DNA of 64,000 bases from assembly GCA_000092065.1 (NCBI GenBank), contig CP000584.1; one strand, written 5' to 3'. The notes under the pieces were generated by a model. The model did no database searches and was not told the origin of the DNA. It saw nothing but the letters and a program-made list of their open reading frames with translations. Below, piece by piece: positions 64 through 16,284 of this stretch. This stretch comes from Ostreococcus lucimarinus. Lineage: Eukaryota. The position numbers and the translations under genes were made by a program. The first letter of the stretch is position 1, and each line of letters starts with the position of its first letter.

Positions 64-2577
64 ATGGCGGACCTCGACGGCGCGCGCGCGGCGCTGCGTC
101 GCGCGGTCGAGCGGCTCGAGGGCGGCGGCGCGCGCGACGACGGCGGCGCGGACGACGACGGCGGCGCGCGACGACGGCGCGCGGCGTCGCGGCGCGCGCG
201 CGCGGACGTCGATCTGCACCACGCGTTGGGCGCGCGCGCGGAGCGGGCGATCGAGCGCGAGACGGGGGCGTACGCGAGCGCGGCGAGCGCGGCGAGCGCG
301 GCGAAGGACGCGAGCGAGGACGCGTACGAGAGCCTGGCGCACGTCGCGCGAGGATGCAGCGCGAGAGCGTTCGTGCGAGGGTTGGGGACGTGGACGACGA
401 CGCTGAGCGAGCGGGTGAGGGCGAGCGAGCGAGGAGGGGCGAGCGGGGCGACGCGGGCGGCGAGCGAGGCGCTGCGGGAGACGCTGACGCGGGCGGGCGG
501 ACTGGCGGACGTGCCGGGGGTGAGGAAGGAGTGCTCGAACGCGATCGCGACGGCGTCGAGCGGGATGGTGCGGATGATGACGCAGGGAACGCGCGAGGGG
601 TTCGAGTTGGCGACGACGTGCGCGAGGTGGCATCCGGGGGCGCTGCGGCCGCACGCGGCGGCGCTGGAGAAGGCGTGCGCGGCGATCGTGAGTTCGAGCG
701 AGGATGAAGACGCGCGCGGGCGCGCGGTGGTGTGTTTGGCGGCGCTGCCGAGAATCGCGGGCGATGCTGGGGCTTGGAGCGCGCACGCGAGGCGCGTGAT
801 GTACGCCGCGCACTCGGCGATGCACGACGCGTTCGAAGGCGCCGAGGACGGCGAGCTCAAGCGTCAACTCGACGTTACGCTCGCACCTCCGACCGAAACG
901 TTGCCGAAACCGTTCACCGAGGGAGGGTGGCCGCTCGGTTCGATCGAGGCTTTGGTTTCAATGTTGGAGTGTCTCGAGGAAATGTGTCGCGCTCGATTTC
1001 CGTGCGCCGTGCCGATGCCCACCGCCGCCGCGGTGACGCTCGTCGCTCGAGCGCTCGCGTGCGATGGCACGCCGGTGGCGTCCATACCGGGGCTTCCACC
1101 GTCTCCGGTGGCGCCAGAGCTCGTCGTCGCGTTGCCGCGCGTGCACATCGCGGCTTTGGGGGTATTAGAGGCGCTACTAGAGACGGCGCGAACCACGGCG
1201 CTGCCGCAGGGAGGTAGAATAGCTAGAGCTCTCGAGGGCGTGCTGCGGGCTAGCGCGCCTTCGCCGAGCGACGTCGAGAATGGGGAACCAATTCGGCATC
1301 GCATGCACGCTCGCGCGTGCGCGCACGACGCCATCGCCATTGCTTCGTACGCGCTCGGCGGGGCGTACGTGAGCGGCGAGCTCGCATCCGCGGTCGCTTC
1401 GTTCGTCATTCAAGATGCGAAACCGTGTGGAACGGGGAAGAGCGCGCTCGCCAGCGGTGGTCAACAAAGCAAAGCGAGTGCGAAGAAACGCAAAAAAGGT
1501 GGCGCGTGGGGTAACGCCACGGCAGAAGGTTTGGACGATCTCACTACGGCTGCGGCTTTGGACGATATGAGCGGCCCCTCGGCGGGGTCGGCGGCTTTGG
1601 AAGCCATCAAGTTGCAAACATCCGCGCTGCGAGCGCTGACTGCGATGCTCACGATCGCCGGCGCCATGCTCGCTCCGGGCATTCGATCGAGAATGGACGT
1701 CACGATCTCACAAGCAATCGCGCAAGTGTGCGATTTGTCCGCGCCGATGGCTGAGGTGGACGACGCGAGCGCCGAACGCCGCGATGCGGCGTTCGACGCT
1801 CTCCTCGCGTCCGTGCTGGCACCTCGACCTTTCCGATCGCCGAATCTACCCTTAGCCGTGGCTGTGTTCGCCAAGGGTTCGTGCGATCCGCAGACGTCGA
1901 AGAAGTGCGCGCAGGCGGCGCTCGCGATTAACGCGTTGTTGCACCCGTCGGCGCCGCCGTTGGCTTCGCAAGCCATTGCGCCGCCTGTCGAGCGCATGGG
2001 TGCCGAAAGTAACGCGATGGCACCACAGTGGGCGTCATTTACATTTGACGCGCACACTGCGGCGAACGTCGGCGCCGCTGACGCGCTGCGAGCGAGCGTT
2101 GGTGATTATTACAAGACGGCGGATGCGCCGACGGCGATAAACGCCGCGGTCAAACAGAATGCCGTGGCGCCTGCACCCGTCGATGATGAGCCCGACGGCG
2201 AGAATGTCGATATGGAAAACAGCGAATTGCCGGCGAATGCAAACGCAACCGTGCAGCCGGCCGAGGTCGAGGCGTTCAAAAACGTCCCCGTCTCCGGATT
2301 CGGAGCGGCCGCCGGCGCGCCGGCGTTCGCCGCGCCAAAGGCAAATGTCGAACCACCGACGGACTTCATCTCCTTCTCCGCACCCGCGAATAAAAAGGCC
2401 AAATCGGACATGTGGGACACCAATCCCGAACCCGTCGGTCTCGGCAGTGGGAAGTCTAAAGTCGTCATGGAGCTCTCCGACGACTCGGACGGAGAACTAC
2501 CCGAAATTCACAGCGGCGACGACGAAGACGAAGAAGACGAAGAAGACGAAGAAGACGAAGGCGAAGAAGACGAATAA
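64..2577 (+). CDS. hypothetical alpha-helical protein with poly-acidic C-terminal tail (DDEDEEDEEDEEDEGEEDE); possibly Rix1/PELP1-like, family uncertain
   Basis: 837-aa ATG ORF with normal amino-acid composition over most of its length. Acidic tail is encoded by a GAA/GAC repeat at 2518-2575. No confident homology recognised. Confidence 0.5.
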   Translation: MADLDGARAALRRAVERLEGGGARDDGGADDDGGARRRRAASRRARADVDLHHALGARAERAIERETGAYASAASAASAAKDASEDAYESLAHVARGCSARAFVRGLGTWTTTLSERVRASERGGASGATRAASEALRETLTRAGGLADVPGVRKECSNAIATASSGMVRMMTQGTREGFELATTCARWHPGALRPHAAALEKACAAIVSSSEDEDARGRAVVCLAALPRIAGDAGAWSAHARRVMYAAHSAMHDAFEGAEDGELKRQLDVTLAPPTETLPKPFTEGGWPLGSIEALVSMLECLEEMCRARFPCAVPMPTAAAVTLVARALACDGTPVASIPGLPPSPVAPELVVALPRVHIAALGVLEALLETARTTALPQGGRIARALEGVLRASAPSPSDVENGEPIRHRMHARACAHDAIAIASYALGGAYVSGELASAVASFVIQDAKPCGTGKSALASGGQQSKASAKKRKKGGAWGNATAEGLDDLTTAAALDDMSGPSAGSAALEAIKLQTSALRALTAMLTIAGAMLAPGIRSRMDVTISQAIAQVCDLSAPMAEVDDASAERRDAAFDALLASVLAPRPFRSPNLPLAVAVFAKGSCDPQTSKKCAQAALAINALLHPSAPPLASQAIAPPVERMGAESNAMAPQWASFTFDAHTAANVGAADALRASVGDYYKTADAPTAINAAVKQNAVAPAPVDDEPDGENVDMENSELPANANATVQPAEVEAFKNVPVSGFGAAAGAPAFAAPKANVEPPTDFISFSAPANKKAKSDMWDTNPEPVGLGSGKSKVVMELSDDSDGELPEIHSGDDEDEEDEEDEEDEGEEDE

Positions 2578-2723
2578 TATCCCGAACGTCGCACTTGTAA
2601 CCATATCGATTCCTTCCACAACGAAACTCTACAGAAACATTTCACGAAACTCGAAAAGTCAACGCGCCCGAGTTCGCGCGCGCGCGACCGACGAGTCGCG
2701 TCACTCTCCCGCGCGCGTCCACG

Positions 2724-3168
2724 ATGAGTGCCGAGGACGCCGTGAAGGCGATACGCATCAAAACCGGCTCCTTGCGGCGTCTGTTTAAAGAGCGCGCGAT
2801 GTACGCCGAGGAAGTTACGAGCGGCGAGGCGAAAGTCGCCGCGATGAAGCGCGAAAACGTCGACGACGGTGACATCAAGCAGCAGGTGCGCGCCCGAGCG
2901 CGAACGACGCGAGCAACGCGACCTCGATGCGTTTTCGTCGCTCACGGTGACTGACGCGCGATGCGGTCGACGCGCGGGGACGCAGGAGAACGTGCTCGAG
3001 GAGAGTGCCATGATGGTGCAAGACAACGCGACGCGCTTGCACGACGCGCTCGGGTCGTTGCAAGTCACCGTGGAGCATTTCGAGTCAGATGCGATGGTAG
3101 AGGCGAGTGAGGAATATGCGGCGGCGGTGGTGTTGTTGAAGGAGGTCGAGGACGCGCTGAGGAAATGA
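2724..3168 (+). CDS. TBCA: tubulin-folding cofactor A (TBCA); join(2724..2885,2986..3168)
   Basis: Exon 1 MSAEDAVKAIRIKTGSLRRLFKERAMYAEEV...DIKQQ matches the TBCA N-terminus (IKIKTGVVKRLVKE...). Exon 2 ENVLEESAMMVQDNATRLHDA...EEYAAAVVLLKEVEDALRK matches the TBCA C-terminus. Intron 2886..2985 has donor GTGCGC, a gactgac branch and acceptor cag, both phase 0. Confidence 0.8.
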
Positions 3169-8320: not shown

Positions 8321-9805
8321 TTAGCGCGCGAAAGGAATGGATTTGCGAATGTCTTCTAAAAATCCCACTGGATCTTTTTGAAACGTCTCTATTCCGTCTT
8401 GAATCCACTTCGACCCGAGCTTGAGACGATGTTCGTTTGTGGGCATACGATAGAGGTACGCCAGCCGCCGCAGCGCCGCCGCAGCAGGTCCCTCTAACGT
8501 GATGTCGCCGACGGGAAACGCGACGGCGGCGTCAAGACTACCGAGAACCATCATATCGCCGAGGTGTTGGTAGCGAAACGGAAGCTCCGTTCGTCCGTTC
8601 ATCGAAGCCCAGATGTTCCAGGCCGCGTAGTCGGCCTGTTGGAACGCCACTTGCGCCGTGGACGGTAAGTGGTCCCAGTCCGCGTTCATCACCTCGGCCG
8701 AGCTCGAAGAAGCGTCACCCACGGCATAAATGCGCGAGTGTCCATTCACTCGAAGCGTCGCGTCCGTTTTGATTTTGCGCGCCGGCGTCGTCGCCACGGG
8801 CCAATCACTCGGTGTTTCTGCGCGCTGCCCGACGGTCCAGCAAACGAGGTCGTATGTCTCAACTCCTTCTGCCCCATCGTCGTCGGCGAGAGTGATTTTT
8901 GACGCGGTACTCACAGTCTCTTCGTCGTTTGCGACTTTGTCCAGACGCATGACTCGACCGCCGACGACGTTGACCCGCGCCTTTTCGAGCACTCGCAGCG
9001 CCGCTTCGCGTTGCCCTGGCGGCGCCGTCGCCATCACGCGCTTATTTGGCGTGATCACATCCACCACACCGTTCGTTGATTTCCCATTCAAGCGCTCGGC
9101 GATCACCGAAGCCAACTCTACGCCCGACAGCCCGCCGCCGATGACGGCGACGCGCGCGTCTCGCCCCGCGCGTTCAAGCTCCCCGAGCACTCCCGCGATC
9201 CGCACCGCATCTTCCGCCGTGTTCAGCGCCACCGCACACTCTCTCGCTCCCGCCACACCTCCATCGCTCGTCGACGTCCCGAGCGCGAGCACCAAGTAAT
9301 CGTACGCCAGCGTCGTCCCGTCCCCGAGCGTAATCGACCCTCCCGTCGCGCTGTACGGCGTCCCATCCCGCATCGTACCCCTGTCCTCCGGCTCGAACGA
9401 CACGACTTCACCCTTCACGTGCGTCACCTTCGTCGGCTTCAGCAGCTCTTCGAACGTCGGCGCCACCTCCCACGGCTCCAGCGTCTCGTTGACGAGTTCG
9501 TACAGCAGCGGCTTGAACACGAACGCCTCCGCGCGATCGACCACGGTGATCTCCGGCCTCGTCTCGCCCGCCCACTCGAGCGAGTCCAGCCGCAGGGCGG
9601 TGTAGAGCCCGCCGAATCCACCGCCGAGGACGACGACGCGCCGCGGCGAGGACGAGGACGAAGGTTCGGCGGTCGCTCGAGGCGACGTCACGCATCTTTT
9701 ATCGGGACGCGCGCGAAGCGAACGCGCGCGGGACGGCGCGCGACGCGTCGAACGCGTCGAGCACGATGCGTCGAACGCGGTGCGCGCGATCGAAGGAGGC
9801 ATCAC
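8321..9805 (-). CDS. type II NAD(P)H dehydrogenase (alternative NADH dehydrogenase, NDC1-like) with organellar presequence
   Basis: Rossmann motif VVVLGGGFGGLYTA, a second dinucleotide-binding motif RVAVIGGGLSGVELA, and an S/R-rich N-terminal presequence. Confidence 0.8.
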   Translation of the reverse strand: MMPPSIARTAFDASCSTRSTRRAPSRARSLRARPDKRCVTSPRATAEPSSSSSPRRVVVLGGGFGGLYTALRLDSLEWAGETRPEITVVDRAEAFVFKPLLYELVNETLEPWEVAPTFEELLKPTKVTHVKGEVVSFEPEDRGTMRDGTPYSATGGSITLGDGTTLAYDYLVLALGTSTSDGGVAGARECAVALNTAEDAVRIAGVLGELERAGRDARVAVIGGGLSGVELASVIAERLNGKSTNGVVDVITPNKRVMATAPPGQREAALRVLEKARVNVVGGRVMRLDKVANDEETVSTASKITLADDDGAEGVETYDLVCWTVGQRAETPSDWPVATTPARKIKTDATLRVNGHSRIYAVGDASSSSAEVMNADWDHLPSTAQVAFQQADYAAWNIWASMNGRTELPFRYQHLGDMMVLGSLDAAVAFPVGDITLEGPAAAALRRLAYLYRMPTNEHRLKLGSKWIQDGIETFQKDPVGFLEDIRKSIPFAR

Positions 9806-9979
9806 GGCGCGGGCGCGCGCGTCGGTGTGACGAACGACTCGGCGGACGACGCGAACGACGCGAACGCGCGGCGGACAACGCGAAGGCGAAAGACGCCGCG
9901 CGCGATGGGCTACGCACGTCGTGGACTACACATTACATCGAAAATTATTTCTACGATCGCGAGACGGTCGGCGGCGCGC

Positions 9980-10654
9980 TCACCCCATCGTCTCGCGCGG
10001 CGCGCCGTCGGCGGCGCGCGCGTACAACTTTTGCGTTTCGTCGAGGGCGACGTGCGCGAAGCAATAACTCACGCACGGCATCGACCGCGCCTCGCACGAA
10101 GGTTCCTGACACACCGACGTCGTCCCTTCGAGCGCGCGCGCGGCCTCGGCCTCCTCCGCGGCGTCGCGCGATCCCCCGTGTCCGCGTCGTAACTCAAACC
10201 TTCGATGCTTCTTGCGCAACTCCTCGAGCAGGCGCCAATACTGATCCCTATACATCGACCGAAGCTCGCGCATGCGCTTCAACCGTCGCTCGACGAGCGC
10301 TCGCTGCGTCGTGTTCCCGTCGTCGTCGTCGTCGGCATCGTCGCCGTCCGCACCGACCGACTCGCGTCTCGCGTCGTCGTCGTCGTCGTCGTCGTCGAGC
10401 GCGTCGTCGAGCGCGTCGTCGTCGAAGCCGAGCGCCGCGCGAAACTTGGCGCGAAGCGCGACGTCGCGATCGACGACGTTCGCGCGCGTTCCGTTCGTCG
10501 TCGTCGTCTCGTCCGCGCGCGTCGTCGTCGCCGCGTCCGCGCCGCCGTCGCGCGTCGCGCCTTCGCCGCCCAATCCTCGTCCTTTCCCGTCCTCGTTCGC
10601 GTCGCTCGCCGCGCGCGCGCCTCCCCGCGCCCCTCCCGCGTCGCGCATGTTCAC
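9980..10654 (-). CDS. small acidic protein with C-terminal Cys motif resembling zf-C3Hc3H of INO80D/KANSL2
   Basis: C-terminal half has protein-like composition (...YRDQYWRLLEELRKKHRRF...CQEPSCEARSMPCVSYCFAHV...). It lies antisense to the junk N-terminus of the 884-aa plus ORF. Confidence 0.4.
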   Translation of the reverse strand: MNMRDAGGARGGARAASDANEDGKGRGLGGEGATRDGGADAATTTRADETTTTNGTRANVVDRDVALRAKFRAALGFDDDALDDALDDDDDDDDARRESVGADGDDADDDDDGNTTQRALVERRLKRMRELRSMYRDQYWRLLEELRKKHRRFELRRGHGGSRDAAEEAEAARALEGTTSVCQEPSCEARSMPCVSYCFAHVALDETQKLYARAADGAPRETMG

Positions 10655-10734
10655 CCGCGGTCCGATCGCGCGCGGTTTCGTCGCGCGCGGTCGCGCGCGC
10701 CGCGCAGTGCGTCGTCACACGTCGACGCGCCGCG

Positions 10735-12420
10735 ATGCGATGCCGACGCGCCGTCGCGCCGTCCGAGCCGCTCGCGGCGCGCGCGCGGCCTCGCGACGCG
10801 CGGCGCGCGGCCCGGCGACGCGCGACGCGCGCGCGCGCGTCGTCGACCGCGGTCGATCTCGATCGCGCGCTCGAGCGCGCGCGAGACGCGGTGAACGCGA
10901 ATGAGAATTTGGCGTACGGTTTGTGGGGACACGGGAAGCACCTCGGATTGCCCGCGAAATGGTACCTGCGCGTGGACGACGACGGGTTCGTGGAGGAGAC
11001 GATGAACGCGGAGCTGTGCTACGTGAGCGGACGAGCGAAAGGGCGCGCGGGTGGGTGCTGGGAGGTTGATTTCAGTGGGTACGCGCAGGCGCTGGAGCTG
11101 GACGACGCGGAGGCGTCGACGATGAGCGCGTGGACGCGAAGCGGATACTGGGCCACGCAGGAGTGCGTGAACGAACACTTAGAGCTGACGCTTCGTGACC
11201 GCACGGAAGAGGACGCGCGCGATGGGGTGGTGAGGATGGGGATGAAACTTCGCGGCGGGCGAGTGACGAGCGAGTTGACGCTCGACGCGACGGCGTGGAC
11301 GCCGAAGAAGCTCGCGGTGGCGGTGTGCGGTGACGAGGACTTGTGGACGTTCGATGATTGGACGACGAGTGCGTGCGGGGTGACGTACGCGCGAACGACG
11401 AAGCTGTACGGGGCGAACGGTGGGGTGCAGGAATTCATCGCCGACGGCGTCGCGTGGGGGCGCGGGAAGGAGGGGCGTAAGATTTTTGAGAAACCGACGA
11501 TCGCGACGCCGACGGTGACGGTCGATCCCGATTCGAGTTCGGAGGTGCCGGTCATTCGAGCGTCGTCGTCGCACGTGTTGGTTGAGCCGTTAATCGATGG
11601 TAAGAGCGCGGGACCGTTTATATTAGACACGGGCGCGAGCGGTTTAGTCATCACGCCAAAAGCCGCGAAAACGCTCGGTCTTCGCGCGTTCGGCGAAGTG
11701 CACGTCTCCGGGGTCTCCGGGCGCGTACCTTGTCAGTTTCGTCGGGGGAACAAACTCAAGCTCGGGCCACTGACGCTGCAGAAGCCGCTGTTCATGGAGA
11801 TGGGATTGGACGGCATCGTGAGCGGGGCGTCGAAACCCATCGCCGGAATAATCGGATTCGATGCCTTCAAAAGTGCAATTTTGAGTGTCTCGGAAGGAGG
11901 CGAGCGTGTTAATATTTACGACTCGAGGCAACTGAGTGCGATCGATGAGGACTGGGCGTGGCAGGAACTTCGACTCGTGTCCAACGTGCCGCACGTGGCC
12001 GCGACGTTCTCTGGCGTCAACGATGCGCACAAAACCGAACCAAACATTTTCATGATTGATAGTGGTGCAGGCGGCGCGGACGTGATTTTTCATTCCAAAG
12101 CGGTTGATGAGCTCGGTTTGAGCGATCTTCTCGACTCCGAAGGCAGAAGAGTTTCCAGTCGCGTGCGAGGCGTGAGCGGCGCTAACGGCGAGAGTGGCGG
12201 CGCCACGCTGACGTACCGTACGACGATGGAATGGCTGCAACTCGTCAGCGCCGATGCCAAGGGTGAGTGCGTGCGTTTTGAAAACATCGACACTTTATTA
12301 GCTTCGGGAGAGGGTTTCAGTCTCTCCGAGCACAGTTGTGGGATGATTTGCGCGAGATTATTAGGTAAGAAAACGATCGTCTACGACGTGCCTCGCCGGC
12401 GCATCGCCTTCATTGAATGA
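10735..12420 (+). CDS. single-chain tandem retropepsin-like aspartic peptidase (two D[TS]GA motifs) with organellar-like presequence
   Basis: ATG at 10735 followed by an R/A-rich presequence. Motifs ILDTGASGLVITPKAAKTLGL and FMIDSGAGGADVIFHSKAVDELGL lie about 145 aa apart. The 884-aa track ORF upstream of 10735 is rejected as coding. Confidence 0.5.
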   Translation: MRCRRAVAPSEPLAARARPRDARRAARRRATRARASSTAVDLDRALERARDAVNANENLAYGLWGHGKHLGLPAKWYLRVDDDGFVEETMNAELCYVSGRAKGRAGGCWEVDFSGYAQALELDDAEASTMSAWTRSGYWATQECVNEHLELTLRDRTEEDARDGVVRMGMKLRGGRVTSELTLDATAWTPKKLAVAVCGDEDLWTFDDWTTSACGVTYARTTKLYGANGGVQEFIADGVAWGRGKEGRKIFEKPTIATPTVTVDPDSSSEVPVIRASSSHVLVEPLIDGKSAGPFILDTGASGLVITPKAAKTLGLRAFGEVHVSGVSGRVPCQFRRGNKLKLGPLTLQKPLFMEMGLDGIVSGASKPIAGIIGFDAFKSAILSVSEGGERVNIYDSRQLSAIDEDWAWQELRLVSNVPHVAATFSGVNDAHKTEPNIFMIDSGAGGADVIFHSKAVDELGLSDLLDSEGRRVSSRVRGVSGANGESGGATLTYRTTMEWLQLVSADAKGECVRFENIDTLLASGEGFSLSEHSCGMICARLLGKKTIVYDVPRRRIAFIE

Positions 12421-12457: not shown

Positions 12458-13837
12458 TTAGACTTCAGGCACTTGCGGAAGATGCATTATCTTATCAACC
12501 GCCGTTTTCGCGTCCATGTGCCCGTCCAAGATGCTCGCCACCGCGGTGAGCACGGGCAAGTGCACTCGGTATCTCTTCGCTAATTGTACGACGGCAGCCG
12601 CCGTCGCGACACCCTCAGCCACTTGGTTCATGGACCCTAACACTTCTTCCAAGGTCTCGCCAGAGCCTAATCTCACACCAACTGTGCGGTTTCGGCTCAA
12701 GTTGACGAAACACGTGAGCATGATATCGCCGGTACCGCTCACGCCCGCGAGCGTCTCCGGTCGGGCGCCCATCTTCCCGGCGAGCCAGCGAATCTCAGCC
12801 ACGCCCTGCGCCACGAGCGCAGCCATGGCGTTGTTGCCGAGCTCCAACCCTTCGACAATACCCGCCGCGATCGCCAAGACATTCTTCATCGCGCCCGAAA
12901 GCTCGACACCGGTCACATCGGTGCTCGTGTTCACTCGAAGACACGACGACCCGAAGAGCTGTTGCACGCTTATCGCCAAACTTTCATCCTCGCTCGCGGC
13001 GACTATGGTCGTGGGCAACCCTTGCATCAGCTCCACCGCGAACGTCGGTCCAGAAAGCACCGCGAGCGGCTGATCGCGTCCCAATCCAGAGGGAATGATT
13101 TCGCTCATCATATCGCACGTCCCCGTCTCCAATCCTTTACTCAAGCACAGCATCGGCGTCTTGGGATCGATGTAATCCTTCACCCCCGCCAAAAACTTCC
13201 GCGATTGTTGCACCGGAACGGCGTGAATGATAAAGTCGCACCCCGCCAGCGCCTCCTTCGCGTCCGTGGACGCCCGTATGTTCACCGGCAGCGAGTACTT
13301 TGGCAAATACTTTACGTTTCTATGCTCCTCGTTCAACGCCCTCGCGTCGTCTTCGTTCCGCATCAATATCACGACGTCCAAATCCGCCTTATTCCTCGCC
13401 AACAGCGTCGCCATCGCCGTTCCAAAGCTCCCACCGCCCATGATCGCCACCTTCTTCGAGCTCTGCAGCACGCTCTCGTCGTTCGCGTGCGCGCTCTCCA
13501 CGAACGCCGCCCAGCGCATGATTTTATCCCACTCCGAGCCGATCGCCGCGCGATCCGCCTCGCTCACGCCCGCGCGGAACGCGTCGTACGCGCTCGCCGC
13601 CGTCGTCGTCCCGCGTCGCCGCGCCGCGCGCGCGTTCGCGCGCTCGCGCGTCGTCGTCGCCGTCGCCGTCGCGGATAGCGCGCGTCCCGCGCTCGTCGCC
13701 GTCGTCGTCGCGCGCGTCCTCGCGCGTCGCCGCGCCGGCGCGTCGCGTCGTCGCGCGCGTCCTCGCGCGTCCTCGCGCGTCGCCGCGCGCGCGCCGGCGC
13801 TCGAGCGCGTCGCCGTCGCCGTCGCCATGGTCGTCAC
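12458..13837 (-). CDS. NAD(P)+-dependent glycerol-3-phosphate dehydrogenase (GpsA-type), plastid-targeted
   Basis: KVAIMGGGSFGTAMATLLARNK NAD-binding motif and conserved GPDH core (LSGPTFAVEL, GLELGNNAMAALV). T/A/R-rich transit peptide. Confidence 0.85.
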   Translation of the reverse strand: MTTMATATATRSSAGARAATREDARGRARRRDAPARRRARTRATTTATSAGRALSATATATTTRERANARAARRRGTTTAASAYDAFRAGVSEADRAAIGSEWDKIMRWAAFVESAHANDESVLQSSKKVAIMGGGSFGTAMATLLARNKADLDVVILMRNEDDARALNEEHRNVKYLPKYSLPVNIRASTDAKEALAGCDFIIHAVPVQQSRKFLAGVKDYIDPKTPMLCLSKGLETGTCDMMSEIIPSGLGRDQPLAVLSGPTFAVELMQGLPTTIVAASEDESLAISVQQLFGSSCLRVNTSTDVTGVELSGAMKNVLAIAAGIVEGLELGNNAMAALVAQGVAEIRWLAGKMGARPETLAGVSGTGDIMLTCFVNLSRNRTVGVRLGSGETLEEVLGSMNQVAEGVATAAAVVQLAKRYRVHLPVLTAVASILDGHMDAKTAVDKIMHLPQVPEV

Positions 13838-13917: not shown

Positions 13918-16284
13918 ATGCGCGCCGCGAACGCCGCCGCGCGGTCCCACGGATCGTGGACGACGCGCGCGCGACGCGACGCGCGCTCCAGCGCCGGAGG
14001 CGCGACGACGCGACGCGCGCGAGTCGCGATGCCGCGACCGCCAGCGCTGGCGACGACGACGACGACGCGCGAGGGACGCGCGACGCGCGACGCGACGCGG
14101 ACGAACGCGGTCGACAGCGCGAAGAGCGTCGACGTCGACGCGACGACGACGCGGGACGGCGCGGAGGCGATCGCGCGGGACGAGGGACTGCGAGGACACG
14201 AGGAACACTTGAAGTATCGGTACGCGACGTATCGAGCGCGGCGAGAGGCGATCGAAAGCGCGGAGGGATCGCTGGATGCGTTTTCGAAATCGTACGAAAA
14301 GTACGGGTTTAACGCGGATGAAAAGAGCGGGGAGATCACGTACCGGGAGTGGGCGCCGGCGGCGGCGCACTGCGCGTTGATCGGGGACTTTAACGGGTGG
14401 AACGGCGAGGCGACGGCGATGACGCGGGACGAGTACGGAACGTGGGAGGTGAAGCTGCCGAAGGGAGCGATCGAGCACGGATCTCGGGTGAAGGTGAGGA
14501 TTTTTACCGGGGATGGCGCGCAGATCGATCGCGTGCCGGCGTGGGTGCGCCGGGCGACGGTCGAGGAGGGAGTGATGGGCGCCGGATACGACGGCGTCTA
14601 CTGGGCGCCCGAGGAAAAGTACGAGTTCAAACACGCGGCGCCGAAAAAGCCGCAGGCGTCGCGAATTTACGAAGCGCACGTTGGGATGAGCTCGAACGAT
14701 GCCAAGGTGAACTCTTACCGCGAGTTCGCCGATGATGTTTTGCCGAGAATCGCCGCCGGTGGGTACAACACCGTGCAACTCATGGCGGTGATGGAGCACG
14801 CGTACTACGGATCCTTCGGCTACCACGTCACGAGTCCGTTCGCGGTGTCGTCGCGAAGCGGGACGCCTGAAGACTTGAAGTACTTGGTCGACAAGGCGCA
14901 CGGCTTGGGCGTGCGCGTGTTGCTCGATATCGTGCACTCGCACGCGTCGAGCAACGTCAATGACGGCATCGCCGGATTTGATTTCGGACAACGCGCCGAG
15001 GATTCGTACTTCGGTCAAGGCGAGGCTGGCTATCACTGGTTGTGGGACTCTCGCCTGTACAAGTACGACAACTGGGAAGTGTTGCGGTATTTGCTCTCGA
15101 ACTTACGCTACTGGGTCGACGAGTACAAATTGGACGGCTTCCGATTCGACGGCGTCACGTCGATGCTGTACCATCACCACGGATTACAAATGGAATTTTC
15201 CGGTGATTACGAACAATACTTTTCTACCGCCACGAACGTCGACGGTGTTGTGTACTTGATGCTCGCGAACGAGATGCTTCACTCGTTGTACCCTGAAATT
15301 GAAGTCATCGCGGAGGACGTGAGCGGCATGCCCACGTTGTGCTTGCCCGTCAACGAAGGCGGCGTCGGTTTCGACGCTCGTTTGGCCATGTCCATCCCCG
15401 ACTTTTGGGTGAAGTATCTGAAAGAACGCCCCGATGAGCAATGGAGCATGTTCGAAATGGTGAGCACGCTGTGCAACCGCCGTTACACCGAGAAGGCCAT
15501 CGCGTACGTCGAGTCGCACGATCAATCCATCGTCGGCGACAAGACGACGGCGTTTTGGTTGATGGATGCGGAAATGTACTCTGGTATGTCCACTTTGAAC
15601 GAACCATCCATCGTGATCCAACGCGGCATCGCGCTTCACAAGATGATGCGTCTCGTCACCGCTTCTCTCGGCGGTGAGGGCTACCTTACCTTCATGGGCA
15701 ACGAGTTCGGGCATCCCGAGTGGGTGGATTTCCCGCGCGAAGGCAACAACTGGAGCCACGACTACTGCCGCCGACGCTGGGACTTGGCCGACGCCGACCA
15801 CTTGCGTTACCAACACCTTCTCAAGTTCGACAAAGCCATGCTCGCGCTGGACAACGATTACCCGTACATGGGTGCCGCCCACCAACACGTGAGCACCGCC
15901 GACGACGGTCGCCAGATCCTCGTCTTCGAGCGCGGCGACCTCCTCTTCGTCTTCAACTTCCATCCCACGAACACGTACGAAGGGCTCGAGATCGGCGTCC
16001 CCGAGCAAGGCAAATACCGTCTCGCTCTCGATACCGACGCCGGTGAATTCGGCGGCGCCTCCCGATGCGGTTTCGGCGTCGATCACTTCACCTCGCCCGA
16101 GCCCGTCGAGAGCTGGGTCGGCCCGTACGAGCAAACGCCTCGCGCGGCGAAGATGTTCGTCTTATCGCCCAGTCGCAGCGCTCAGGTGTACTACCGCGTG
16201 CACGAGCACACGCCCGTATCTTCCGAGCCATCGACCGAGGATATCGTGCGCGAGAACGACGCCTCCGCCTCCAACGCGCGTTAG
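13918..16284 (+). CDS. SBE: 1,4-alpha-glucan (starch) branching enzyme
   Basis: GH13 branching-enzyme motifs YREWAPAA, DGFRFDGVTSMLYHHHG, FMGNEFGHPEW, HDQSIVGDKT. Transit peptide present. Confidence 0.9.
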   Translation: MRAANAAARSHGSWTTRARRDARSSAGGATTRRARVAMPRPPALATTTTTREGRATRDATRTNAVDSAKSVDVDATTTRDGAEAIARDEGLRGHEEHLKYRYATYRARREAIESAEGSLDAFSKSYEKYGFNADEKSGEITYREWAPAAAHCALIGDFNGWNGEATAMTRDEYGTWEVKLPKGAIEHGSRVKVRIFTGDGAQIDRVPAWVRRATVEEGVMGAGYDGVYWAPEEKYEFKHAAPKKPQASRIYEAHVGMSSNDAKVNSYREFADDVLPRIAAGGYNTVQLMAVMEHAYYGSFGYHVTSPFAVSSRSGTPEDLKYLVDKAHGLGVRVLLDIVHSHASSNVNDGIAGFDFGQRAEDSYFGQGEAGYHWLWDSRLYKYDNWEVLRYLLSNLRYWVDEYKLDGFRFDGVTSMLYHHHGLQMEFSGDYEQYFSTATNVDGVVYLMLANEMLHSLYPEIEVIAEDVSGMPTLCLPVNEGGVGFDARLAMSIPDFWVKYLKERPDEQWSMFEMVSTLCNRRYTEKAIAYVESHDQSIVGDKTTAFWLMDAEMYSGMSTLNEPSIVIQRGIALHKMMRLVTASLGGEGYLTFMGNEFGHPEWVDFPREGNNWSHDYCRRRWDLADADHLRYQHLLKFDKAMLALDNDYPYMGAAHQHVSTADDGRQILVFERGDLLFVFNFHPTNTYEGLEIGVPEQGKYRLALDTDAGEFGGASRCGFGVDHFTSPEPVESWVGPYEQTPRAAKMFVLSPSRSAQVYYRVHEHTPVSSEPSTEDIVRENDASASNAR

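Follow-up and report, generated by a model that had tools for sequence, protein, structure and literature searches.

Aspartic proteases are commonly divided into two kinds, the homodimeric retropepsins and the bilobal pepsins, the latter being thought to descend from a duplicated version of the former. A gene of the green alga Ostreococcus lucimarinus raises the question of where a protein with two retropepsin-like active-site motifs in one chain belongs in this scheme, and what such a protein does. The gene lies at 10735..12420 on the plus strand of a 64,000-nucleotide stretch of contig CP000584.1 (GenBank assembly GCA_000092065.1), the whole of which is called the window here. An earlier sequence-only reading had described its product as a single-chain tandem retropepsin-like aspartic peptidase with a targeting presequence. 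Translation of the window showed an unbroken open reading frame (ORF) of 561 codons and a stop, which is complete and consists of a single exon. With reasonable confidence, the product can be described as a three-domain protein made up of a presequence, a LolA-like barrel, and a two-lobed retropepsin-type pseudo-dimer of bacterial origin. It would act as an active aspartic endopeptidase targeted to an organelle, probably the plastid.

Two retropepsin-type lobes in one chain

The sequence-only reading had noted two D[TS]GA motifs about 145 aa apart, and both were found. They are ILDTGASG at aa 296-303 (catalytic loop 1, D298; 11620..11643, on the plus strand like all features of the gene) and MIDSGAGG at aa 440-447 (catalytic loop 2, D442; 12052..12075), with the two Asp separated by 144 residues. 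The composition of the protein itself predicts only 0.057 D[TS]GA motifs per protein, so two such motifs are unlikely to have arisen by chance. Downstream of each motif, at a distance of 16-18 residues, a helix ends in L-G-L (AAKTLGL and AVDELGL), corresponding to the G-L hydrophobic motif that had also been pointed out. In an alignment of 37 sequences from algae, land plants, and bacteria, the mean column identity was 25%, and the only invariant columns were D298, G300, G320, G374, D442, and G444. These six columns comprise both catalytic D-x-G triplets, one Gly of a flap, and the Gly of a G-loop. The catalytic residues are thus invariant amid otherwise variable columns, which suggests that the active site is under selection.

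Lobe 1 (aa 271-405; 11545..11949) was identified directly by profile searches. It matched Pfam Asp_protease_2 (PF13650) at aa 287-376 with 55.4 bits against a cut-off of 24.3 (E=1e-14) and gag-asp_proteas (PF13975) with 36.2 bits against a cut-off of 28.2 (E=9e-9), and ApRick aligns with it at the sequence level. The Asp_protease_2 match was present in 54/54 aligned family members. Hidden Markov model searches of this kind had been proposed as a check that might refute the earlier reading. They did not refute it, as the match places the lobe 1 motif inside an aspartic-peptidase fold. The catalytic loop and the hydrophobic-hydrophobic-Gly motif downstream of it are psi-loop elements as defined in PMC11313796. 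In lobe 1, the downstream motif is GIIGFD (11845..11862), in which G374 is invariant and which matches the G-loops IGLD, LGMS, and LGRD tabulated in that paper for Ddi1, ApRick, and the XMRV protease. A flap-like beta-hairpin (aa 317-337, RAFGEVHVSGVSGRVPCQFRR; 11683..11745) is formed by model strands 317-326 and 329-337, with G320 invariant and G326 near-invariant.

Lobe 2 (aa 406-561; 11950..12417) appears to be a diverged retropepsin-type domain, and several indirect lines suggest that it is a diverged copy of lobe 1. The two lobes aligned in register by BLASTP (E=0.005) and by hhalign (E=4e-5, probability 70%), the latter pairing DTGASG with DSGAGG and VSGVSG with VRGVSG. Collinear bacterial homologues, including a Planctomycetota protein described below, contain two Asp_protease_2 stretches by Pfam, and the NCBIfam clan AA model TIGR02281 matched twice in the Selaginella homologue. 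NCBIfam contains no model for the family: none reached its cut-off on the members tested, and TIGR02281 scored below its own. A Gly-rich flap-like hairpin is also found in lobe 2 (aa 474-506, SSRVRGVSGANGESGGATLTY...; 12154..12252), with strands at 474-478 and 490-506, a low-confidence tip at 481-488, and near-invariant G479 and G485; its VRGVSG aligns with VSGVSG of lobe 1. The G-loop of lobe 2 is modified to GMICAR (aa 536-541; 12340..12357), with a near-invariant G536. Each lobe carries the motif pair of clan AA, namely ILDTGAS with IIGFD in lobe 1 and MIDSGAG with MICAR in lobe 2, where Cys (C539) replaces Gly. Across eukaryotic members, the lobe 2 motif reads hydrophobic-Cys-(Ala/Gly) and the Cys is near-invariant, whereas bacteria keep G-N-[IV]-G. 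The replacement of Gly by Cys would be a lineage-specific change adjoining the predicted active site.

We compared the AlphaFold2 model of the protein (pLDDT 85.7, pTM 0.83) with solved structures. Structural superposition gave a score of 22.0 over 296 residues for 9iy9, a "putative endopeptidase" of B. fragilis. The top matches among pepsin-family enzymes scored 15.0-15.8 over about 230 residues, the C-terminal domain of M. tuberculosis Rv0977 15.7 over 228, a covalently tethered HIV-1 protease dimer 13.1 over 180 of 192 residues (2.8 A), and ApRick 10.3 over 113. Foldseek agreed with these results. Since nearly the whole tethered HIV-1 dimer superposes, the two lobes are predicted to pack as a canonical pseudo-dimer with their Asp loops facing each other.

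When the family profile was searched against the PDB, 9iy9 was matched over both lobes (E=6.3e-10), followed by ApRick, a UBA-domain protein, Ddi1, and SIV/HIV proteases, together with one chance-level match to a designed protein. No pepsin chain was found among these sequence-level matches. Homology to a solved structure, 9iy9, therefore extends across both lobes. Neither PF00026 nor TAXi matched the window protein even at E<=10. The in-register lobes, the second protease stretch in the bacterial homologues and in Selaginella, and the retropepsin-type relatives in the PDB all agree with the earlier description of a fused pseudo-dimer of retroviral-type folds rather than a pepsin.

Like pepsins, the protein is a bilobal single chain with one catalytic Asp per lobe. 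Retropepsins proper (MEROPS A2) have a single domain per chain, become active only by forming a homodimer, and are encoded within retroelements or retroviral polyproteins; the window protein has two diverged domains in a 561-aa chain, and its neighbouring genes and their conserved order, described below, do not point to such a setting. Likewise, Rickettsia APRc/ApRick (5c9b), Ddi1, and the retroviral proteases (MEROPS A2, A28, and relatives) have one domain per chain and need to dimerise, whereas here two diverged copies are fused, giving a predicted asymmetric site. Pepsin A1 and the mycobacterial PE_PGRS C-terminal (PecA-type) domain (4ehc) show no significant sequence similarity to the window protein, PE-PGRS_C scoring 16.3 bits against a cut-off of 33. 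The lobes of the window protein (135-156 aa) are also smaller than those of pepsin A1 and PecA-type proteins, and both keep a flap-like hairpin, as indicated by modelled secondary structure and alignment. Pepsins have one flap (Tyr75), on the N-lobe only, and are made as zymogens with an N-terminal propeptide. The structure that matched best over both lobes, 9iy9, is annotated as an "exported protein / putative endopeptidase" of Bacteroides fragilis (420 aa, released 2025-08-06). It is bacterial and exported, is only 13% identical to the window protein, and has its own N-terminal region of about 150 aa. In its architecture, the window protein belongs with other single-chain tandem proteins of retropepsin type, a class about which little is known and for which one structure of a bacterial member (9iy9) has been deposited.

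In the mechanism that we propose, D298 of lobe 1 and D442 of lobe 2 would meet at the lobe interface, activate a water molecule as in all clan AA enzymes, and cleave the peptide bond by general acid-base catalysis. The Gly-rich hairpins at 317-337 and 474-506 would form two flaps closing over the substrate, as in retroviral dimers and unlike the one-flap pepsins. Because both halves are in one chain, dimerisation would not be needed for activity, and the half-sites would be free to diverge into asymmetric subsites. This mechanism is that of an ordinary aspartic protease and involves no new catalytic principle.

Presequence and N-terminal domain

The first 38 residues (aa 1-38, MRCRRAVAPSEPLAARARPRDARRAARRRATRARASST; 10735..10848) are a probable organellar transit peptide, judging from their composition, their pLDDT, and the alignment with homologues. 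This segment is an extension relative to the prokaryotic homologues. It is basic, with only 2 acidic residues, and R/A-rich (13 Arg and 11 Ala), as the sequence-only reading had described it. There is no hydrophobic core, and the AlphaFold model shows disorder here (pLDDT 30-43); all of these features fit a transit peptide. In the alignment with the Planctomycetota homologue, similarity begins at aa 37 in both proteins, right after the signal peptide of that homologue. Most complete eukaryotic members have basic, Ala/Ser/Thr-rich N-terminal extensions without a hydrophobic core, and these extensions are unrelated in sequence. Two database homologues, P0024 and P0026, have short or acidic N-termini. 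The named eukaryotic members belong to plastid-bearing lineages throughout. The presequence sits at the position of the bacterial signal peptide, such extensions recur, and the named eukaryotes are plastid-bearing; we therefore consider the plastid the most likely destination, with the mitochondrion as the alternative.

The presequence is followed by a LolA/LolB-like beta-barrel (aa 39-245; 10849..11469) and by a linker (aa 246-270; 11470..11544), which was delimited by alignments and model secondary structure and contains a conserved Pro254. The fold of the N-terminal domain is LolA/LolB-like, with the open antiparallel beta-barrel and helical plug of that superfamily. Conserved positions include W109-E-x-D-x-x-G and a plug helix with the pattern LDDxEA...W..(T/S)G.W. 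The domain alone matched 0 Pfam families at E<=1, and so did not fall into a LolA or LolB sequence family. It differs from LolA/LolB/RseB-type carriers in this respect, in being fused to a protease, and in occurring in a eukaryote. By analogy with LolA, LolB, and RseB, we speculate that it may recruit or hold a hydrophobic, acylated, or otherwise lipid-modified partner. The 224 residues after the presequence contain 4.0% Trp (9 residues) and 2.2% Cys; the earlier description of a Trp/Cys-rich N-domain thus held for Trp but not for Cys. Within the literature searched, the LolA-like domain has not been noted in plastid biology.

Bacterial relatives and genomic setting

A word-indexed search returned about 70 homologues of the eukaryote type, along with a small number of weak bacterial matches in which a PDZ domain is added. 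Scanning bacterial genomes with a pattern uncovered a Planctomycetota protein of 531 aa (P0313; L005:2893-4488). This protein starts with a signal peptide, and its alignment with the window protein is collinear over aa 37-560 of the latter (28% identity, E=6e-49). At the same locus, another ORF (1372-2850, plus strand) lies upstream. When 1.84 billion representatives were searched with a profile, 3828 matched at E<=1e-3, 490 of them at E<=1e-30. Among the best 150, many were full-length matches of 500-545 aa, and a signal-peptide-like hydrophobic start was present in most of those whose sequences were read. The labelled bacterial relatives were Planctomycetota, named "pepsin/retropepsin-like aspartic protease family protein". 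P0313 and the other bacterial proteins of 500-545 aa share with the window protein the order of LolA-like domain, lobe 1, and lobe 2 as well as the conserved motifs. They differ in having a classical signal peptide or lipoprotein-type N-terminus in place of the Arg/Ala presequence, and in keeping the Gly of the lobe 2 G-loop.

Other bacterial relatives vary in their domains. P0073-P0077 likewise have the N-domain and two D-T-G lobes, with an extra C-terminal PDZ domain (Prc/Ctp/DegP type) and 18-20% identity to the window protein. P0072 (406 aa) has two lobes and a PDZ domain, and the N-domain is absent by Pfam. These arrangements suggest that the tandem lobes form a modular core to which varying accessory domains are joined. 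The bacterial ORFs at the match were 326-340 aa long at L006 and L007, with lipoprotein-like N-termini, 393-396 aa at L011 and L014, and 636-638 aa at L012 and L015. No obvious common neighbour ORF was found among the eight bacterial homologue loci (L006-L015), where shadow ORFs blur the high-GC loci.

We constructed a neighbour-joining tree of 37 sequences with a fast distance routine, using P0073-P0077 as the outgroup. All the eukaryotic sequences (16/16) formed one clade with 100% bootstrap support, located beside the bacterial group of 500-545 aa, and a streptophyte subclade was recovered at 92%. The ancestry of the protein is bacterial. Its architecture would have been inherited from exported bacterial proteins through a single acquisition by the green-plant ancestor, with the signal peptide giving way to an organellar presequence.

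The family was observed in bacteria, in chlorophytes (Ostreococcus, Cymbomonas, Bryopsis, and Volvox), in streptophytes (Mesotaenium, Marchantia, Riccia, Calypogeia, Selaginella, Adiantum, Ginkgo, and Cryptomeria), and in the haptophyte Diacronema. The land-plant orthologues (P0305, P0306, P0307, P0168, P0150, P0176, P0174, and P0309) come from liverworts, a lycophyte, ferns, and the gymnosperms Ginkgo and Cryptomeria. No angiosperm member surfaced in the homologue searches, which were not exhaustive for angiosperms; this absence among the matches suggests loss in flowering plants. In the neighbour-joining tree only, the sequence of Diacronema (Pavlova) lutheri (P0279, in the cluster of P0139) was nested among chlorophytes next to Cymbomonas. 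This placement hints that a haptophyte received the gene from a green alga.

The GC content of the window is about 63% throughout. The genes neighbouring the protease gene encode a protein kinase, an NDH-2-type oxidoreductase, a KANSL2-type zinc-finger protein, an NAD-dependent glycerol-3-phosphate dehydrogenase (NAD-GPDH), a starch branching enzyme, and a Ctr copper transporter. Among the genes near the locus, no reverse transcriptase, RNase H, integrase, or gag was found. The gene order is the same on a contig of 0.93 Mb, around an orthologue with 76% identity. These housekeeping neighbours and their conserved order bear out the earlier statement that the gene is not part of any retroelement. 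Bacterial contamination was ruled out by the synteny with eukaryotic genes and the matching GC content. The protease gene is nuclear and stable, and it is neither a mobile element nor a contaminant. Another orthologue, P0016, is 69% identical and falls in the same 90%-identity cluster as an Ostreococcus mediterraneus protein. Around a more distant homologue (L033), KANSL2-like and Pyr_redox_2 genes were found within 6 kb. Three of the flanking ORFs, at 8321-9805 (minus strand, NDH-2-type oxidoreductase), 12458-13837 (minus strand, NAD-GPDH), and 13918-16284 (plus strand, starch branching enzyme), have N-terminal extensions rich in Arg, Ala, Ser, and Thr, whose composition resembles that of the protease presequence; the order of this block is kept in locus L031.

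A product identical over all 561 aa (P0001) has been called on several marine metagenome contigs (Tara/ENA/JGI) with the same neighbours. This identical product, the similar lengths of the orthologues, and the fact that an upstream extension would be antisense to a real gene together support the start at 10735. A longer ORF at 9766-12420 (884 aa) was rejected as the gene, as its added part is Arg-rich, of low complexity, and antisense to a KANSL2-like gene at 9980-10654 (minus strand, 222-224 aa, with a weak zf-C3HC3H_KANSL2 match). The in-frame extension itself (9766-10734, plus strand, 969 nt) is a high-GC "shadow ORF" that could lead gene callers astray, to the 884-aa product.

Existing annotation of the family is inconsistent. 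The gene itself is already in databases under the labels hypothetical or "Peptidase A2 domain-containing", and the named members are labelled hypothetical, uncharacterised, or "Peptidase A1/A2 domain-containing". UniRef names disagree between orthologues, with "Peptidase A1" for Riccia and "Peptidase A2" for Ostreococcus and Cymbomonas. In JGI/IMG, many C-terminal fragments in the clusters of P0001 and P0016 carry the label "cold shock CspA family protein". We rejected this label, since its only support was a chance-level match (E=1) of aa 433-468 (12031-12138) to 2lss; it looks like a propagated mis-annotation.

Competing explanations and meaning of the family

A protein with this fold need not be an enzyme. 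Plant xylanase inhibitors and basic 7S globulin keep a bilobal fold and work as binding or inhibitor proteins, and the window protein could be a dead pseudo-protease of this kind. We consider this improbable, because both Asp residues and the Gly that follows each of them are invariant from bacteria to gymnosperms while the rest of the protein varies, and the known inactive examples are pepsin-family proteins with no detectable sequence similarity to the window protein. It is very unlikely that the protein itself belongs to the pepsin family (MEROPS A1, PF00026), whose bilobal plan it shares, and has diverged past recognition. Its above-threshold matches are to Asp_protease_2 and gag-asp_proteas and its PF00026 search was empty, the PDB chains related to it in sequence are those of ApRick, Ddi1, and SIV/HIV protease and never pepsin, and its short lobes each have a Gly-rich hairpin at the flap position.

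The gag-asp_proteas match above its cut-off would fit a retrotransposon or retroviral protease domesticated like Ddi1 or SASPase and then duplicated within the alga. This origin is nevertheless extremely unlikely, given the lack of gag, reverse transcriptase, RNase H, and integrase nearby and the housekeeping neighbours in conserved order. Moreover, the three domains are collinear with signal-peptide-bearing bacterial proteins, and the eukaryotic sequences form one clade beside bacteria. A different doubt concerns location: the protease may be active outside organelles, with its Arg/Ala-rich N-terminus being a disordered cytosolic tail or an artefact of the start codon. High-GC genomes readily yield Arg/Ala-rich sequence, as the antisense shadow ORFs here illustrate, and P0024 and P0026 lack a basic extension, beginning with short or acidic N-termini. 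We judge this explanation unlikely, since similar extensions are found in most complete eukaryotic members despite their unrelated sequences, occupy the position of the bacterial signal peptide, and occur in eukaryotes that, where named, are all plastid-bearing.

We prefer an active, organelle-targeted aspartic endopeptidase over these explanations, and several points weigh against it. Lobe 2 of the window protein has no direct Pfam match, and its hydrophobic-hydrophobic-Gly motif carries Cys instead of Gly. The adjacency of D298 and D442 is inferred from the superpositions of the model. The composition of the presequence does not distinguish plastid from mitochondrial import, and the plastid assignment comes from taxonomic distribution only. 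Lipid binding by the LolA-like domain is a guess from analogy. The donor lineage and the single origin are provisional, as the tree is a neighbour-joining tree of 37 sequences whose bacteria are mostly unlabelled. No report of activity, inhibitor, localisation, or substrate for any family member was found in the literature searched.

A broader scenario is possible, although we regard it as doubtful. The family may represent an independent duplication and fusion of a retropepsin that is still recognisable in sequence. It would have been captured once from bacteria by the green-plant ancestor and moved from the periplasm to the plastid, where the LolA-like domain would pass proteins that are lipid-modified or very hydrophobic on to an asymmetric site with two Asp. 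Lineages from picoalgae up to gymnosperms would have retained the protease, and flowering plants would have lost it. If true, the family would offer a present-day counterpart of the event that has been proposed as the origin of the pepsins.

The literature searched yielded no paper about the family, 9iy9, or any of the named orthologues. Nor did it mention the green-lineage branch, its LolA-like domain, the swap of signal peptide for presequence, or the breadth of the distribution. The family falls between retropepsins and pepsins, as it is a single chain with lobes that are still recognisably retropepsin-type, and it could inform the evolution of fusion and asymmetry in aspartic proteases. 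The analysis also defines an uncharacterised and apparently organelle-targeted protein that is conserved in green algae and in land plants other than flowering plants, among them the tractable models Ostreococcus, Marchantia, and Selaginella.

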